Positions 5,739 through 55,780 of a stretch of DNA of 64,000 nt are shown here, in pieces (position 1 is the first letter of the stretch; the number at the start of each line of letters is the position of its first letter). The notes below the pieces were generated by a model, which worked only from the letters and a program-made list of their open reading frames with translations, ran no database searches and had not been told where the DNA came from. Position numbers and translations under genes: made by a program. The DNA comes from an uncultured Gammaproteobacteria bacterium. GTDB taxonomy: Bacteria; Patescibacteriota; Patescibacteriia; UBA9934. Where the stretch lies: NCBI GenBank assembly GCA_964613815.1, contig CAZTKG010000003.1:54903-118902 (forward strand), in the 5' to 3' direction.

Positions 5739-6659
5739 TCAAGTCTTGAGATAGCGACGCATCGCAAGATATGTCGTTGCCGTGCTGAGGAGGAAGAATC
5801 CAATAAACTGCGCGCCAAATAGCTCGATCGCGTAAGTATTGAAGTACCCTGTAAAATCTATTGCTACATCTCCAAAGAATTTATGCACCCAGATGTCGAA
5901 TGTATCAAGTGATAGGTAGACCCCGAGCGCGACAGCACCAACGGAGAAGACGCTATAGATGAATGCCTCGATGATGAACGGGGCTCGCACAAACCAGTTT
6001 CCCGCTCCGACAAGCTTCATGATGCCGATCTCATCCCTGTGGATGTAGATAGCGACTCGAATCGTGTTAAAGACGATGAGCGCCGTCATGACGATAAAAA
6101 ATGCGATAAGGCCAACGCCTGCGATACGAACGCGTTCAGAAAGCGTTTCAATTCGCTCGATGACTAGCTCGTAATCTTCGTAATCCTTCTCTTTTATGTG
6201 CGGTGAAAATTCCGGCGTCTCTACCGCCTCAAGGATGAGCGCGAAGTCTTCAGCAGATTCGGATGAAATGACAAGCGCATCTCCGAATGGGTTTGTCCCG
6301 ATCTCTTCCAAGGAAGAGAGAATGGTGTCATCCCCCGCATAACGCTCTTGGAATATCGCAAGCGCATCCTCGGCTGTTATTACCCTTGCCTCGCGAACCT
6401 GAGCTAAATCCTGTACGTATGCCTGTGCGGCACTCACGATGTCCTCTGGAGTTTCCGGCTGAAAGTAGACGAGAATCTCGATCTTTTCCTCGACTGACTC
6501 GAGAGCTGCATCTGCGATAACATTAATGAATACGACAACATTTATGGTTACGAGCGTGAGAACGAAGATAGAAAATGTCACCAATGAAAGCCAAAAATTC
6601 CGGAAAATGTTCTGGATAGCGAATTTGATGACGCGAAATATTGAGAGAAAGAAGCTCAT
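5739..6659 (-). CDS. ftsX: FtsX-like permease
   Basis: 306 aa with an N-terminal TM, a large extracytoplasmic loop and three C-terminal TMs. It overlaps ftsE by 4 nt. Confidence 0.75.
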   Translation of the reverse strand: MSFFLSIFRVIKFAIQNIFRNFWLSLVTFSIFVLTLVTINVVVFINVIADAALESVEEKIEILVYFQPETPEDIVSAAQAYVQDLAQVREARVITAEDALAIFQERYAGDDTILSSLEEIGTNPFGDALVISSESAEDFALILEAVETPEFSPHIKEKDYEDYELVIERIETLSERVRIAGVGLIAFFIVMTALIVFNTIRVAIYIHRDEIGIMKLVGAGNWFVRAPFIIEAFIYSVFSVGAVALGVYLSLDTFDIWVHKFFGDVAIDFTGYFNTYAIELFGAQFIGFFLLSTATTYLAMRRYLKT

Positions 6660-7339
6660 GAGAGGACGTATTTACCGCGCTCAACATCTGAGACAACCTT
6701 TCCGCCTCCGATGGTGACAACGCGCTTCTTGAGAGAGTTTACGATGTCTCGGTCATGCGTCACGAGAACGATCGTCGTTCCGTATTCGTTGATTTTTTTG
6801 AGGAGCTGAATGATTTCTTGCGCGTGGATCGCGTCTAGGTTTCCGGTAGGCTCGTCTGCAACCAGGATCTTTGGACTGTGCACAAGGGCGCGCGCGATGG
6901 AGACGCGCTGGCGCTCCCCGCCGGAGAGCTGGTTTGGGTAGCGCTGTATTTTGTCTGCAAGCCCAACGATTTTGAGGACTGACGGGACGACTTCTTTGAT
7001 GTATTTCCTGCCCGCTCCCGCAACCTGGAGCGCGAACTCGACATTTTCGAATACGGTTTTGCGAGGAAGGAGCTTGTAATCCTGAAACACGAAACCGATT
7101 TGCTTGCGCAGCGTTGGTATTTCGCTTTGACGGATCTTTGTAATATCCCAGTCTCCGACGATGATCCGCCCCTTTGTTGCACGCTCTTCCGCGAGGAGAA
7201 GCTTTGCTAGCGTTGTTTTACCTGATCCACTTTGACCGACAACCGAAACGAATTCGCCTGGCTTGATGTGGAGACTTACGTTTTTGAGTGCGCAGGTCTT
7301 TGGTTTGTAGAACTTTGTGACGTTCTTGAAGTGAATCAT
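6656..7339 (-). CDS. ftsE: cell-division ABC ATPase FtsE
   Basis: Walker A GQSGSGKTT, LSGGERQR signature, Walker B ILVADEPTGNLD. The protein is globally FtsE-like. Confidence 0.85.
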   Translation of the reverse strand: MIHFKNVTKFYKPKTCALKNVSLHIKPGEFVSVVGQSGSGKTTLAKLLLAEERATKGRIIVGDWDITKIRQSEIPTLRKQIGFVFQDYKLLPRKTVFENVEFALQVAGAGRKYIKEVVPSVLKIVGLADKIQRYPNQLSGGERQRVSIARALVHSPKILVADEPTGNLDAIHAQEIIQLLKKINEYGTTIVLVTHDRDIVNSLKKRVVTIGGGKVVSDVERGKYVLS

Positions 7340-7407
7340 ATGGTGGATTGATTATAGCAGATGCGGTTTGTCAAAGAAAAAAGCCCAGCTTGTGCTGAGA
7401 TTTTTTC

Positions 7408-7482
7408 TGGAGCCATTGGGCGGATTTGAACCGCCGGCCTATGCTTTACGAAAGCATTGCTCTACCCCTGAGCTACAATGGC
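7408..7482 (-). tRNA. tRNA-Thr (anticodon CGU)
   Basis: Reverse complement GCCATTGTAGCTCAGGGGTAGAGCAATGCTTTCGTAAAGCATAGGCCGGCGGTTCAAATCCGCCCAATGGCTCCA folds as a cloverleaf. Anticodon loop TTCGTAA, with an encoded CCA. Confidence 0.8.
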
Positions 7483-7499
7483 ATCAGACTTGTTAAAAT

Positions 7500-7730
7500 G
7501 CCGTGTCATCGTTCTTTTTCTCCGCTTCTCGACTACGTACCATTAGTACGTCTTACTGCGATGCTCGAAAGAAGAACGATGACACGGCATTTTCCCTGCG
7601 TCTGGGTCTTTGCCAGTGCGATGTCATCATTCTTTTTCTCCGCTTCTCGACTACGTACCATTAGTACGTCTTACTGCGATGCTCGAAAGAAGAACGATGA
7701 CACGGCATTTTCCCTGCGTCTGGGTCTTTG
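7500..7730. repeat. tandem duplication (about 112 + 118 nt) of a long-hairpin element
   Basis: Copy 1 has perfect arms gccgtgtcatcgttcttt / aaagaagaacgatgacacggc around a roughly 50-nt loop that contains an inner acgtac/gtacgt hairpin. Copy 2 is identical except for 3 substitutions in the left arm. Both end in attttccctgcgtctgggtctttg. Confidence 0.6.
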
Positions 7731-7767
7731 TGGGGTCTATGCTAGCTGAAACTGCGCTTTTCTTCAA

Positions 7768-8796
7768 CTACTCGGCTATGACCATGTAGTATGTACCGTT
7801 TGATGATCTTGTAACACCCGGATCCGCACCTGCGATAATCCACTCTACCGAGCTGAAAACGCCGACGTTGTTTGTGCATGATCTCCCGATCTGCCCTGAT
7901 TTTGTTCCGTAGAACAACATACGGCATTCGTCATTTTTTTCGCCCCGCAGCGTTGATCCGAGTTGGTACATTTCCAAGCTCGATTCTTCGGAGACGCCCC
8001 CTATCTCCCACTTTGATGAACTCTTATCTGTATCTATTTGCATCACGTAGTTGACCGTCTCTCGCGCCTTCATCGCTTCGGGTGACGCCATGTAAACCAG
8101 CAACCAGTCTCCATTCATGATCGCGGATGGGTCCATGTATGCCTCCTGATCTTGATCGTCGCACCAGAGAACACCCTCTATGTCCTGGAATGTTCCGTCA
8201 ATGCCGCCATCTGACAGCGCCACTGAAATGCATGGCTGCGCTTTTCCTGGTGGGCGGACGGTGTAAACAAGTGCTAGGTCGCCGTCAATTTCTATAAGTG
8301 TCGGGTCAAATCCGTTGAAGATATTTTTACCCTGGACATCGATCGGATTTGGCCCGTCGATCACATCGCCATCTTCGCTTATGATGGTGTACGCCATCCT
8401 TCCGCAGAGATCTGACGTATCCATGAATGACTGATGCGTCACGATGAGCTCGTCGTTGTATTCGATGATGTGCGGCACACTTGATTCACCATGAACACTC
8501 CCAACATGATCGAAGTTCATGCCATTGTTTGATGTATATAAAATGAGTTCATCGTTTGGCGCGGCAGATGGACAATCTACGGCAACGATCTGCTCTTCGG
8601 ATCCTAACTCGAGCTCTTCATCGGATTCTTCCTCCTGTACCTGTTCTTGCGCCTCTTCTATCTGCTCGGCCGTGGCATCTTGCTCTGGCGCAGGCTCTTC
8701 CTGTGTTGTTGCCGATGTTTGCAAAAGCGCTATGAGCACAATGGCAGCAATAAATGATGCGGCCGAGATAAACATGAACTGATGTGCGTTTTTCAT
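7768..8796 (-). CDS. hypothetical secreted/membrane-anchored protein with an acidic low-complexity linker
   Basis: N-terminal TM, a Glu/Gln-rich linker, then a Gly/Asp-rich globular domain that may be a beta-propeller. No motif recognised. Confidence 0.45.
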   Translation of the reverse strand: MKNAHQFMFISAASFIAAIVLIALLQTSATTQEEPAPEQDATAEQIEEAQEQVQEEESDEELELGSEEQIVAVDCPSAAPNDELILYTSNNGMNFDHVGSVHGESSVPHIIEYNDELIVTHQSFMDTSDLCGRMAYTIISEDGDVIDGPNPIDVQGKNIFNGFDPTLIEIDGDLALVYTVRPPGKAQPCISVALSDGGIDGTFQDIEGVLWCDDQDQEAYMDPSAIMNGDWLLVYMASPEAMKARETVNYVMQIDTDKSSSKWEIGGVSEESSLEMYQLGSTLRGEKNDECRMLFYGTKSGQIGRSCTNNVGVFSSVEWIIAGADPGVTRSSNGTYYMVIAE

Positions 8797-17321: not shown

Positions 17322-17576
17322 TTACATCGCTGGAGCAGCTGTGTCGTCTCCTCCTTCGGCTGGTGCCTCTGGAGCAGCTTCTGCTGGTGCTTCAGCTGGA
17401 GCCTCTTCTGCTGGTGCTTCTGGTGCAGCAGCTTCTTCCGCCGGTGCTTCTGCTGGAGCCTCTGGAGCTGCTTCAGCTGGTGCTTCTGATGATGATCCAC
17501 CAGAACAGTTTGGACACATTCCGTCCGTTAGTTGCTCGTCAGCCAATTCGGCTGAACATCCTGTGCAAACGCCCAT
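17322..17576 (-). CDS. small zinc-ribbon protein with acidic PEAPAEA repeats
   Basis: 84 aa with CTGC...CPNC (two CxxC pairs), then (P/A)EAPAEA repeats encoded by tandem DNA repeats. Confidence 0.5.
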   Translation of the reverse strand: MGVCTGCSAELADEQLTDGMCPNCSGGSSSEAPAEAAPEAPAEAPAEEAAAPEAPAEEAPAEAPAEAAPEAPAEGGDDTAAPAM

Positions 17577-23668: not shown

Positions 23669-23721
23669 GTCTCGTAGCACCTGAATGGGTGCTCTTTTTG
23701 TTTTTTCGCCTTTCCGATGTC

Positions 23722-23795
23722 TCCCATCTCGACCTTGCGGAGAGATCTCTTCGAACACATTAGCGGCAAGATCTCTCCGCAAGGTCGAGATGGGA
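23722..23795. repeat. palindromic intergenic element (27-bp perfect inverted arms, 20-nt spacer)
   Basis: tcccatctcgaccttgcggagagatct (23722-23748) and its exact reverse complement (23769-23795). Confidence 0.7.
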
Positions 23796-23857
23796 AATAA
23801 TGATTATGATCCATGAAAAAAATCCCTCCACTTAGGGACGGATGCGGTACTGGGTGC

Positions 23858-24697
23858 TCAGACGAGCTTGAACCAGCGTTTGGAGACGAGTTCGTAGTTG
23901 GCGACGCCGAGGAGGGCTCCGATGGTGGCGGAGGCGATGAAGACGGCGAAGACTTCGGGGCGGGTCATGGTGGGGTCGTAGAGGACGAGGTAGCCGAAGA
24001 CGGTGGCGAGGCCGGTGTCGAAGGCGCAGATGAGGCGTTCGTGGCAGTGGATTTTGCGGAAGAACTTTCCGATGCCGATGATGATGAGTGCCAGGATTGC
24101 GCAGACGATGGCTACAGGGAATATGCATCCTGTTACTGCCCAGATTATTGCGTTCTCGTAATCGAGATCTGCATACTCGTACTCATGCTTTTCCCGATAG
24201 TCTGACGACCTCCAAGATCTCTTTAAGATGAACTCTGCTCCGAATTCGGTGAGCAGCTTGAATACTGCTGTAGCCAGAGTTGAGATGAGAAGGATCAGCA
24301 CTGGAATAGCAATGTTTCCCATCAGAATACTTCCCGACCCACCAATGATCGCTTCGAATGCGATCTCTTCGAAGGTCATCCCGGTCTCAGCGTGCCGGAA
24401 CAGGATCCAGGCAAGCGGACTGAGTGCGATTGCCGTGAAGAAGAAGAGATGGAATGGGCGCGGCTGCTCTGCCCACTTGGCAACACCTCTTCTGATTTCG
24501 ATCAGGCCCTGACAGCTCTGCTGTGCCACTTCCACTGCAGCCTTGTGGGTCTCCCTGAAGCGATATGACAGGAAAGCGGTGCCCATGCCGACGATGAGGC
24601 CGAGCCACCAGATGCTCGCTGGGAGGGTGATCGCTGTGCCGATACCGGTGGTGACACCGAGGATGATCGCGAGGGCGATTTCGTGTCTGGTTTTCAT
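23858..24697 (-). CDS. hypothetical polytopic membrane protein
   Basis: 279 aa with about 7 predicted TMs. It is flanked on both sides by the palindromic elements. Confidence 0.5.
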   Translation of the reverse strand: MKTRHEIALAIILGVTTGIGTAITLPASIWWLGLIVGMGTAFLSYRFRETHKAAVEVAQQSCQGLIEIRRGVAKWAEQPRPFHLFFFTAIALSPLAWILFRHAETGMTFEEIAFEAIIGGSGSILMGNIAIPVLILLISTLATAVFKLLTEFGAEFILKRSWRSSDYREKHEYEYADLDYENAIIWAVTGCIFPVAIVCAILALIIIGIGKFFRKIHCHERLICAFDTGLATVFGYLVLYDPTMTRPEVFAVFIASATIGALLGVANYELVSKRWFKLV

Positions 24698-24785
24698 GAA
24701 AAGAGCTCCTGTGCGGACGGGATGTCCGGTGAAATTACCGTAACTTAGCTTTTTATTGGCGTCAATGACCGGATCATTCTCTTTT

Positions 24786-24860
24786 TCCCATCTCGACCTT
24801 GTGGAGAGATCTTGCAGCTATTCGCGCTCGAAAGGATCTCTCCGCAAGGTCGAGATGGGA
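24786..24860. repeat. palindromic intergenic element (second full copy)
   Basis: tcccatctcgaccttgtggagagatct (24786-24812) and gatctctccgcaaggtcgagatggga (24835-24860), with a 22-nt spacer and one arm mismatch. Confidence 0.7.
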
Positions 24861-24914
24861 AACGAAGGAGAGGTAGGTTGATGATATCGAGCGATGAAAA
24901 AAGACCCGGATGGG

Positions 24915-54600: not shown

Positions 54601-55780
54601 AAGCGATTGAGAACGTGTTTCCGCTTACAGGGAAGCTTCCGCTTACGTCTCCACCGTCTGCATCTACGTCGTCAGCTGAAGAGATTTCGAAAGCGATCTC
54701 GTCTCCAGAAGAAGCACTAGATGAAACTTCGATTCGCGCCGTGAGCGTTCGTGCCTCACCTGCGTCGAGTGAAAGTCCAAGGTTTGAGAATGTTACCTGA
54801 CGAGTTGATGCGTTTACTGAACGCGCGTCTGTAAGACGTGTTGATCCCTCGTATAGGTAAGCGTTTGAAATGTTTGTTGTTGCTGCGACACTAGACAATG
54901 TTAGGACCACATCGTCGAATGTTGCTGCGTCGTCACCAGCCGCTACGTCGAAGCTGAAGACTTCAACAGAGTTTGCTCCTGTTGGAAGCGTTGCTCCTGA
55001 AGGAGTTGATGAAGAAGTTGAAAGAGTCACTCCACCAGCATCTGAGCTAGTGTCTGTGTCTGTATCTGCTGTTCCGCCCTGCTGAGCTGCGTCAGTCAAA
55101 GCTGAAACTTCTCCGTCGATGTCGTCTCCAGCAGATAGACTGCTGTCGTCGATACTGTCACCTGAGAGGAATGATGAATCCCAAAGTCGGTTTGCATCTC
55201 GTCCATCTTCGGTGAGCATGCGCTTTTCTCCGTCCCAAGCAATGTAGTAGTCACTTCCGTCCATGTATGTCATTCCATCGAATGCAGACGCGGTTGTTAG
55301 TGATGATCCTACAGAGTAGTCAACGAAGAACACGTCAGGAACATCGTCAATCGTTGATGCCCATGAGTCGCCAGCGAGTCCGCTAGCTACGTCTTCTGTT
55401 TCAACCCAGTGGATTGTTCCATCGGTTGCCACAGCGTACGTTTTTGCGTCGCTCTGGATCTTGATCCATCGGACACCTGGTCGGTAGACCACGTTTCCAG
55501 CCAATGAGATGTCTGCAAGATCGCTATCTGAGATCTCGTTTACATCGTCAAAGTCTGCATACCAAGTTTTGTATGTCTTTTCGTTAGAGAACGTGTAGCG
55601 TGATCCGTCGTAACCGTAGTAGTAGAGCGTTGAAAGAGATTCACCCTTGATGAGTGACCCCATGTCAGCAGCGCTTGCTGAAGGAACAGCAAAAGCGGCA
55701 ATACCGACTGCCCATAGAACAGTTGCGGCGGCAATTGTAATCGCTAACGCACGTTTTCCGATTGTTAACACATTTTCCAT
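51671..55780 (-). CDS. giant secreted Ser/Thr/Asp/Gly-rich cell-surface protein (S-layer/adhesin-like)
   Basis: The ORF is open to 55801. I prefer the start at MENVLTIGKRALAITIAAATVLWAVGIAAFAVPSASA, a signal peptide. The remaining roughly 1350 aa are Thr/Ser/Asp/Gly-rich with many degenerate repeats. Confidence 0.7.
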   Translation of the reverse strand: MENVLTIGKRALAITIAAATVLWAVGIAAFAVPSASAADMGSLIKGESLSTLYYYGYDGSRYTFSNEKTYKTWYADFDDVNEISDSDLADISLAGNVVYRPGVRWIKIQSDAKTYAVATDGTIHWVETEDVASGLAGDSWASTIDDVPDVFFVDYSVGSSLTTASAFDGMTYMDGSDYYIAWDGEKRMLTEDGRDANRLWDSSFLSGDSIDDSSLSAGDDIDGEVSALTDAAQQGGTADTDTDTSSDAGGVTLSTSSSTPSGATLPTGANSVEVFSFDVAAGDDAATFDDVVLTLSSVAATTNISNAYLYEGSTRLTDARSVNASTRQVTFSNLGLSLDAGEARTLTARIEVSSSASSGDEIAFEISSADDVDADGGDVSGSFPVSGNTFSIASSSAGTVTITKSGTVSDPTLGGNDETIGQFKIAADNEAAEIEEITLKIDSADDHSDYQLWDGSDMLGSGEYLGDKLVKFNLSEAFSISDGNSNVFTVSADIGGDATDNIKVYVDNAADVLAVGGDFGFGMTVDIATSGTYDGASCTASTGNCSFSTIEGGEITMAWTGPGAGDITTNSQDNVLFEYTLTAAQAITVKDMDFIIAADDDGDNDAYDSGTSDDDSTADDDGLVNNQSTAEANVSDIKIINADTGATIMGPVDPSTTGNDGFQSLTFSDDFTMAAGETLNLAVTADIDNNMTSGTEVSAVLDISEFSAQDSNGDTISTASIVPSGDIVGKDQSAKSASLVIALGSTPGDVTTVMGMDDVGVANYSVNAGDAGDTTISSITLSVYADADGTGTFTLGDVTGVDVNDYVESCSIYDAAGDLLDGPDSPASNGQTILFDDVSWLIEAGDSEILAVECNFGNPGGSAGYVAFDINDMSEDIVAEDQDGTDVDPTTDDPNGATSPTDVVTINTAGSLSVAKGADTPSADFIMTGSTNNLVATYEIDATNEDFEITTITFSEEQAEDDAASSDSSAYANNISLVTLEYPLEDGTTTTDTTSMNGNEAKFSGINLYVTEEDEAHVSVYVDVPSTDRNSEGSATSNEKIRMGFFVDATNDDNFKAAGVGSGVTNDDDDVSAVGDDASGTDGINTFVIRETQPTVTLSDDSPSGTGKVPSDQEVFRFNVAASSGEDVVLEELVWKFSATDNGSGDWNQCASGELETSDMDIYNLSKEGTSTALDSDSDWTLLDTSANSCSSEDVGFIALALSTAETIPAGETYTYAVYLDSTGASSTNDDSMQLELSGDPLVTTYIGSSTLNETLSDTTDTTLTVTDSSGYTAGDIICLDSDNGGDCDTGEERMLVAAVPDGTTLTVVRGYLNSATDATGVASDDLDRLPSAFVWQDDGSTTVSTAAQERWGAYLVDDLPVTGGSLQF

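Follow-up and report, generated by a model that had tools for sequence, protein, structure and literature searches.

The 64,000-nt stretch of DNA analyzed here (positions 54,903 to 118,902 of contig CAZTKG010000003.1, assembly GCA_964613815.1; hereafter, the window) comes from an uncultured marine bacterium of the Patescibacteriota, a member of Candidatus Uhrbacteria. It carries a tandem array of two long hairpins between the last coding sequence (CDS) of an operon and a gene for tRNA-Thr(CGU). The operon encodes, in this order and with genes 1 nt apart, a Mur ligase, a 183-aa protein, DivIC, PpiC, and a 342-aa exported protein; the tRNA gene is followed by an intrinsic terminator and by ftsE (Table 1). 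Because both the tRNA and the upstream 342-aa open reading frame (ORF) are on the minus strand, the array is 5′ of the tRNA.

Table 1. Features of the hairpin array and its surroundings, in window coordinates
Feature	Coordinates	Strand	Remarks
Hairpin copy 1, tRNA-proximal	7495..7593	−	22-bp uninterrupted outer stem, UUUC/GAAA short helix, apical ACGUACU-AAU-GGUACGU stem-loop
Sequence after hairpin copy 1		−	four U
Hairpin copy 2, distal	7617..7707	−	sequence of copy 1 except for three changes in the 3′ arm; no U-run follows
5′ tail of repeat unit 1	7590..7612	−	AAAGACCCAGACGCAGGGAAAA; its final bases take part in the basal pairs of hairpin 1
5′ tail of repeat unit 2	7708..7730	−	identical to the tail of unit 1
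Junction between units	7613..7616	−	...GCA-CTGGC-AAAGACC...; absent from the single-copy contig (alignment)
tRNA-Thr(CGU), CCA encoded	7408..7482	−	12 nt downstream of hairpin 1; Rfam tRNA, 71.2 bits
Canonical intrinsic terminator	7384..7399	−	hairpin and T-run just past the tRNA; closes the transcription unit (terminator scan)
Weak sigma-70-like promoter candidate	7739..7767	−	TTGAAG-17 nt-TAGCAT; read by eye, abuts the stop codon of the upstream gene, unflagged by the scan
342-aa exported protein gene	7768..8796	−	no Pfam match, distantly BNR-like; last CDS of the operon
ftsE	6656..7339	−	next transcription unit downstream; synteny anchor of the comparisons

A repeat search identified 7499-7612 and 7617-7730 as tandem copies with 97% identity, and Tandem Repeats Finder reported a single array at 7504-7730 with a period of 118, 1.9 copies, and 99% matches. 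No further copy of the unit was found within the window. Read on the tRNA strand, each unit consists of a 22-nt tail followed by a long hairpin; on the plus strand, the tail common to both copies reads ttttccctgcgtctgggtctttg. In copy 1, the two arms (7495-7519 and 7569-7593) are 25 nt each, 96% complementary, and separated by 49 nt, whereas those of copy 2 (7617-7637 and 7687-7707) are 81% complementary on the plus strand. Both copies contain an inner ACGTAC-N5-GTACGT hairpin. The three differences between the copies all lie in the left arm of the plus strand (GCGATGTCATCATTC in one, GCCGTGTCATCGTTC in the other). On the minus strand, these changes fall in the 3′ arm, where two are C-to-U and one yields a C-C mismatch; copy 2 therefore has only one mismatch on the tRNA strand, because two of the three changes still pair as G-U. 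On this strand, copy 1 was predicted to fold with a free energy of -49.5 kcal/mol (z-score, -9.55) and copy 2 with -36.3 kcal/mol (z-score, -4.83), the plus strand of copy 2 giving -31.9 kcal/mol. Sequences matching a 17-nt arm with three or fewer mismatches occurred five times, against 0.15 expected.

A preliminary description of this DNA had reported a tandem duplication of a nested hairpin between a secreted-protein gene and tRNA-Thr, on the same strand as both, with a perfect stem and an inner hairpin in the first copy, three changes confined to the left arm of the second, and a common tail; it was upheld wherever it could be checked. It had also read the changes as an asymmetric decay that left copy 1 as the selected functional unit. 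The confinement to one arm stands, but on the tRNA strand two of the changes preserve pairing, and all three cluster with the unique 5-nt junction CTGGC at the end of the distal unit, the remaining ~100 nt being identical. Such clustering is unlike random decay and suggests either a remodeled duplication junction or an older duplication with a homogenized core.

The duplication was evaluated in contigs of the same species, which were recovered from several public assemblies via the exact sequence of the two flanking proteins. Three contigs (L002, L004, and L007) carry a two-copy sequence identical to that of the window; the unique junction and the three distinguishing bases are thereby found in four assemblies, including that of the window, generated by different pipelines. 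Two others (L003 and L006) end within the repeat, and L001/L005 has one copy with a perfect stem and is exactly 118 nt shorter, being elsewhere 100% identical to the window over 11 kb. These broken and single-copy contigs are what could be expected if the duplication were spurious, but any artefact is more likely to reside in the single-copy contig, and the agreement among the four assemblies makes a spurious duplication scarcely credible. Assembly error certainly does not account for the two-copy state; the single-copy contig reflects either a real indel or a collapsed repeat.

The context of the array points to its transcription together with tRNA-Thr. The 12 nt between hairpin 1 and the tRNA are too short for a promoter, so the hairpins should belong to the tRNA-Thr precursor; the terminator lies after the tRNA, and the upstream genes are tightly packed. 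A strict promoter scan of the minus strand found no consensus promoter from the end of the 342-aa gene to tRNA-Thr, which is weak evidence because the same scan also misses a TTGATT-17-TATAAA motif that we read by eye before tRNA-Lys. A plus-strand ORF (7426..7749) covers both the repeats and the tRNA in antisense and, for this reason, is most likely an artefact, as had been proposed; other small ORFs over the repeats were likewise dismissed as repeat or antisense-tRNA artefacts. The explanation that we favor, with about even confidence, is that the array is a lineage-specific palindromic spacer of ~97 nt in the 5′ leader of tRNA-Thr(CGU), duplicated in tandem with a 118-bp period, structured, and co-transcribed with the tRNA.

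If so, the hairpins would be transcribed on the tRNA strand within one RNA that starts in the upstream operon, or at the weak promoter candidate at its end, and continues through the tRNA to the terminator. RNase P would cut at the 5′ end of the tRNA and leave a stem of at least 22 bp as a 3′-terminal structure that may protect the upstream mRNA. Stable 3′-terminal hairpins guard bacterial mRNAs from 3′ exonucleases, as is established for REP-type elements. Alternatively, a double-strand-specific nuclease such as RNase III might cleave the stem; mRNA and tRNA would be separated either way. RNase III cuts long perfect helices between cistrons in phage T7 early RNAs and in rRNA operons, and the 22 contiguous base pairs predicted for hairpin 1 would have a geometry like that of RNase III substrates. 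The duplication is probably recent; the second copy would have arisen by slippage or unequal recombination, and copy number may vary within the population.

Three identities had been put forward in the preliminary description: a structured small RNA gene in two copies, a duplicated attachment site, and a processing or termination element for the upstream gene. A processing element fits best, the hairpins lying between the last CDS of the operon and the tRNA with the terminator after it. If it terminated or attenuated transcription of the upstream operon as an intrinsic element, the array would limit read-through into tRNA-Thr. Although the hairpin of copy 1 is very stable and precedes UUUU, this role is very unlikely: the run comprises only four U after copy 1 and none after copy 2, the interior of hairpin 1 is 49 nt, the terminator scan detected no site other than the one past the tRNA, and the related elements described below are without U-runs. 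With 12 nt too short for a promoter, termination here would moreover prevent expression of the tRNA.

An attachment site, duplicated when an element integrated at the tRNA and left as its scar, would account for direct repeats that adjoin a tRNA gene. In the nearest ftsE relatives (L103/L104), just 94 nt separate PpiC from ftsE, and there is no 342-aa gene, hairpin, or tRNA; relative to them, these three features of the window form an extra block of ~1.46 kb. However, this explanation is contradicted by the anatomy, in that the repeats directly follow one another on the 5′ side of the tRNA, enclosing no inserted DNA, and they have no sequence in common with the tRNA beyond a 10-nt chance match. 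A Pfam scan of the ~55 ORFs of the window detected no transposase, integrase, reverse transcriptase, Nop-domain protein, or RNase III, and no recombinase was found among them either. We regard an attachment site as extremely improbable.

Database searches with the window unit assigned it to no known family. In the region of the element, Rfam 15 gave nothing beyond the tRNA at the gathering threshold; the best non-tRNA matches were hairpin models of plant miRNA precursors, at 30-34 bits versus thresholds of 84-110. The stem-arm pattern had no match in viral contigs (IMG/VR) or in GTDB species genomes. In the JGI metagenome collection, its eight matches were chance 19-mers within coding sequence, a weak negative because the source contig is missing from that collection. 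A scan of viral contigs with the core motif returned two chance matches, and blastn searches of phages, of plasmids, and of 5,426 E. coli genomes with the whole unit were negative.

Related genomes, those of Uhrbacteria and their allies, hold a family of hairpins at comparable positions. We fetched 80 ftsE neighborhoods from related genomes; the best ftsE matches among 185,579 species genomes were 79% identical and named Candidatus Uhrbacteria (Patescibacteria). No blastn match to the window element was found among these 80 loci. In the relatives, tRNA-Thr(CGU) is usually preceded by tRNA-Gly(CCC), and the spacer between the two is bimodal in length, at 1-50 nt or 120-760 nt. One to three hairpins of ~125 nt, all with one stereotyped architecture, are present in many spacers of the longer class; such hairpins also directly precede tRNA-Gln(UUG) and occupy a few short spacers between protein genes (members in L051-L056, L046, L047, L050, L036, L037, L040-L042, L027, L034, and L099:4516-4617). 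The search of other genomes thus yielded chance matches to the unit itself, together with a family of tRNA-adjacent hairpins whose homology to it is weighed below.

The paired structure of the family is supported by covariation. In an alignment of 11 sequences with a hand-set structure, 95.8% of cells were paired and 24 of 48 pairs showed double changes; these values were reached by none of 500 shuffles, and no slid register came close. RNAalifold, applied to 20 sequences, detected compensatory changes in 26 of 34 pairs. Among 25 copies, G-U cells outnumbered A-C cells (87 versus 20), an excess also seen in the variable outer stem, indicating that the structure is selected on one strand, as RNA or single-stranded DNA. 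Variability is greatest in the outer stem. Conservation is strongest in the interior, which includes the apex GRCGUAC-loop-GUACGKU and two invariant tandem G-A loops separated by one helical turn.

The family lies mostly 0-5 nt 5′ of tRNA-Thr(CGU) or tRNA-Gln(UUG), and the 14 copies in this position are all oriented like the tRNA; the opposite orientation was found in five copies just after tRNA-Gly and in four after protein genes. Identity was 79-91% at orthologous positions between genomes versus 62-83% for paralogues within a genome. Because orthologues are more alike than paralogues, the elements appear to be old and kept in place, and not a recently active transposon. We found no target-site duplication upon comparing filled and empty tRNA-Gly/tRNA-Thr spacers, and no promoter shared by the 5′ flanks of the members. 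A scan of 12 related loci gave no Rfam match to the family, full-text literature searches yielded no description of it, and the member L055:2690-2814 had no blastn match in the 5,426 E. coli genomes. The comparative data demonstrate the existence and covariation of this apparently undescribed ~125-nt hairpin family abutting tRNA genes. A comparison of the longest stems upstream and downstream of tRNA-Thr was uninformative, because terminators dominate the downstream side.

Other observations concern the same spacers. The tRNA-Gly(CCC)-tRNA-Thr(CGU) pair near ftsE is conserved in Uhrbacteria, Falkowbacteria, and Magasanikbacteria (L016-L095); in the window, tRNA-Thr is present and tRNA-Gly absent. 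L055:7378-7446 is a 69-nt short form of the family, in which only the outer helices are retained and the whole interior is swapped for a short loop. Extra copies of a string resembling the 3′ end of tRNA-Gly, GATTCCGGTATCCCGCT, are found at L061:3527-3759 and in the tRNA-Gly/tRNA-Thr spacer of L069, and could be pseudo-tRNA fragments or attachment-site-like repeats. In L023 (1947-2246), the 300 nt upstream of tRNA-Thr(CGU) contain a different repeated hairpin (ACCTCGAAGTCTGACTT...) with an 18-bp perfect stem, plus a terminator. The long tRNA-Gly/tRNA-Thr spacers of L071 (764 nt) and L074 (505 nt) have no family hairpin and may hold small ORFs.

Whether the window element belongs to this family was assessed with two covariance models: R1, a full-length model of the P1-P8 architecture built from other species without the window sequences, and R2, a core model from 23 sequences comprising the P7 helix, a tandem G-A loop, the P8 apex, and another tandem G-A loop. 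With default filters, R1 found only the two copies in the window (27.9 bits, E 3.6e-4; 17.2 bits, E 0.11), and its score on hairpin copy 1 was 27.9 bits on the minus strand versus 20.9 bits on the plus strand. The apex CGTAC-N3-8-GTACG, invariant in the family, occurs in the window only in the two copies, with 0.15 expected. In both, the sequence AAGACGUAC-UAAUG-GUACGU forms the hairpin apex and fits CGUAC-N(4-6)-GUACG preceded by R-A-G-R; its 5′ flank, AAGACGUAC, is identical to that in L047, and the apex 9-mer ACGUACUAA is common to L027. Similar to the family members, the window element shares the strand of the tRNA and precedes tRNA-Thr(CGU) beside ftsE, with a gap of 12 nt versus 0-5 nt in the 14 family copies. 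Judging from this resemblance in sequence and position, we lean toward homology between the window element and the family; if homologous, it is probably a shortened, degenerate member.

Several findings weigh against this assignment and against the leader explanation as a whole. With filters off, R1 gave 28.6 bits to an unrelated palindrome at 23720-23797, as high as to the element, so that an R1 score mostly reflects long hairpins in general. R2 with filters off found no match at 7495-7711, and two nhmmer sequence profiles of the family found none on the window element, each at E<=10. By eye, helix P7 and both tandem G-A loops are absent from the element. The closest available relatives, with ftsE ~80% identical, have neither tRNA nor hairpin at this site, and one of them carries a family member after ftsX. 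Membership is unproven because the sequence profiles and R2 miss the element and R1 scores an unrelated palindrome equally. As for the mechanism, the ~55 ORFs of the window include no RNase III gene, and several family members are antisense to neighboring genes, so a purely co-transcriptional role does not explain all of them.

The main rival explanation, to which we give clearly less than even weight, is that the array is a palindromic repeat of intergenic DNA, selfish or neutral and akin to MITEs, REPINs, or ERIC, that has persisted beside the tRNA because insertions there are harmless, was duplicated by slippage, and has no role for the host. It would explain the patchy presence of the family at orthologous sites, its two orientations, its tandem and inverted arrangements, and deletion forms such as that in L055, as well as the change from one to two copies between contigs of the same species. 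An unrelated long palindrome is also repeated elsewhere in the window, and another kind of hairpin is found upstream of tRNA-Thr in L023. However, the 64 kb contain no other copy of the unit, public collections gave chance matches only, and neither a target-site duplication nor, in the window, a transposase was found. In addition, the ends of the family are least conserved and its interior most, the reverse of transposase-bound inverted repeats, and orthologous copies have been kept across species with compensatory changes.

A strand-specific and covarying structure with invariant internal loops, as seen in the family, would also be expected of independent small RNA genes, in which a hairpin RNA is freed from the tRNA precursor by RNase P and acts in trans, for example, as a protein-binding scaffold. 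The short distance to the RNase P site (0-5 nt for family copies, 12 nt for the window element) agrees with such a route. We nevertheless hold it distinctly unlikely for the window element, which has lost the conserved internal loops, has no Rfam match, and showed no promoter or terminator of its own; antisense-placed family members, too, leave no room for a promoter. A broader version, in which the ~125-nt hairpins beside the tRNA-Thr and tRNA-Gln genes of Uhrbacteria, with the window element as a reduced member, form a novel class of structured RNA that is made in hairpin-tRNA dicistrons, released by RNase P, and active in trans, is unlikely as well. Members of such a class may serve as protein-binding scaffolds, given that the tandem G-A loops recall box C/D or K-turn-type sites.

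Returning to a duplicated structured spacer in the tRNA-Thr leader, the result for the window is modest and does not point to a novel gene system: it explains an odd repeat and effectively rules out a known RNA family, an attachment site, and a terminator. The more interesting by-product is the covarying, tRNA-abutting family, which is absent from Rfam 15. If its members are processing signals or stable RNAs, they would bear on how tRNAs and mRNAs mature from shared transcripts in minimal genomes with few RNases and short spacers. A model of the family would also help to annotate gaps of 120-500 nt between tRNA genes that otherwise appear 'empty'.

Some further features of the window were recorded. 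The 342-aa protein has 25% identity (E 4e-8) to a BNR-repeat-like protein located after ftsX in L055. Upstream of ftsE (7340-7372, minus strand), perfect TTGACA and TGCTATAAT motifs are merely 12 nt apart; the -10 box is ~17 nt ahead of the ATG, and there is no obvious Shine-Dalgarno sequence. A 27-nt tandem repeat of ~4 copies (17354-17463) lies ~280 nt upstream of tRNA-Lys(UUU), in a small minus-strand ORF (17322-17576) whose product is a peptide rich in alanine, proline, and glutamate. The other long palindrome has two copies (23722-23795 and 24784-24862) that flank a gene without Pfam match (23858-24697, minus strand); their arms are perfect over 27-28 bp (TCCCATCTCGACCTTGCGGAGAGATCT), their loops of 20-23 nt are unrelated, and the copy at 23722-23795 comes after a canonical terminator.

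Among known systems, ERIC/IRU elements are imperfect palindromes of ~127 bp in transcribed intergenic regions of enterobacteria. The family resembles them in size (~125 nt), in its long imperfect hairpins, short spacers, two orientations, and short forms with internal deletions, and in its conservation across species with compensatory changes. Unlike ERIC, it belongs to a different phylum, shows no sequence similarity to the 5,426 E. coli genomes (searched with the window unit and a family member), and abuts tRNA 5′ ends strictly on the tRNA strand, which is not an ERIC trait; the window element, moreover, occupies a single locus. REPINs and REP sequences with RAYT genes (PMC3116915) are similar in forming hairpins from inverted doublets, in their compensatory changes, and in their extragenic clusters and tandems. 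In REPINs, however, the flanking REP 16-mers are conserved and the spacer is variable (PMC3116915), whereas here the outer stem is variable and the interior conserved; in addition, no RAYT or IS200-like gene was found in the 64 kb of this genome that the window covers, and copies are not abundant there. A MITE was considered and rejected: inverted arms are present, but there is no target-site duplication and no further copy in the window or the collections, and the termini of the family are its most variable part.

TIGR arrays occur in candidate phyla radiation (CPR) bacteria, among others, beside a gene for the Nop-domain protein Tas; their flanking stems are variable but always palindromic, and their units contain unpaired variable spacers of 8-12 nt flanked by box C/D motifs (PMC12045711). 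The two G-A motifs of the family, 10-11 nt apart on each strand, resemble box C/D spacing. Unlike TIGR spacers, however, these 10-11-nt segments pair with each other with covariation and are identical in several copies, the neighbors of the family are housekeeping genes, and the window element is without G-A loops. A TIGR-Tas or box C/D array was rejected, since the interior segments are conserved and pair with each other, the units do not form an array, and neither the window nor the surroundings of family members contained a Nop-domain protein.

Spacer RNAs of tRNA operons, such as 3′ETS-leuZ of E. coli, and dicistronic tRNA-snoRNA or tRNA-C/D sRNA genes (cited in PMC12045711, refs 66-67) are likewise non-tRNA RNAs that are co-transcribed with tRNAs and freed by tRNA-processing nucleases. 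Such spacer-derived RNAs act via single-stranded base-pairing, whereas the window element is almost fully double-stranded. Intercistronic RNase III hairpins include those of phage T7 early mRNAs, the stems flanking rRNAs and spacer tRNAs, and E. coli metY-nusA. Although they have no sequence relation to the window element, the likeness would lie in a stem of at least 20 bp between cistrons of one transcript, beside a tRNA. By analogy with these hairpins, cleavage or retention of the stem would set the stability of the 3′ end of the upstream RNA.

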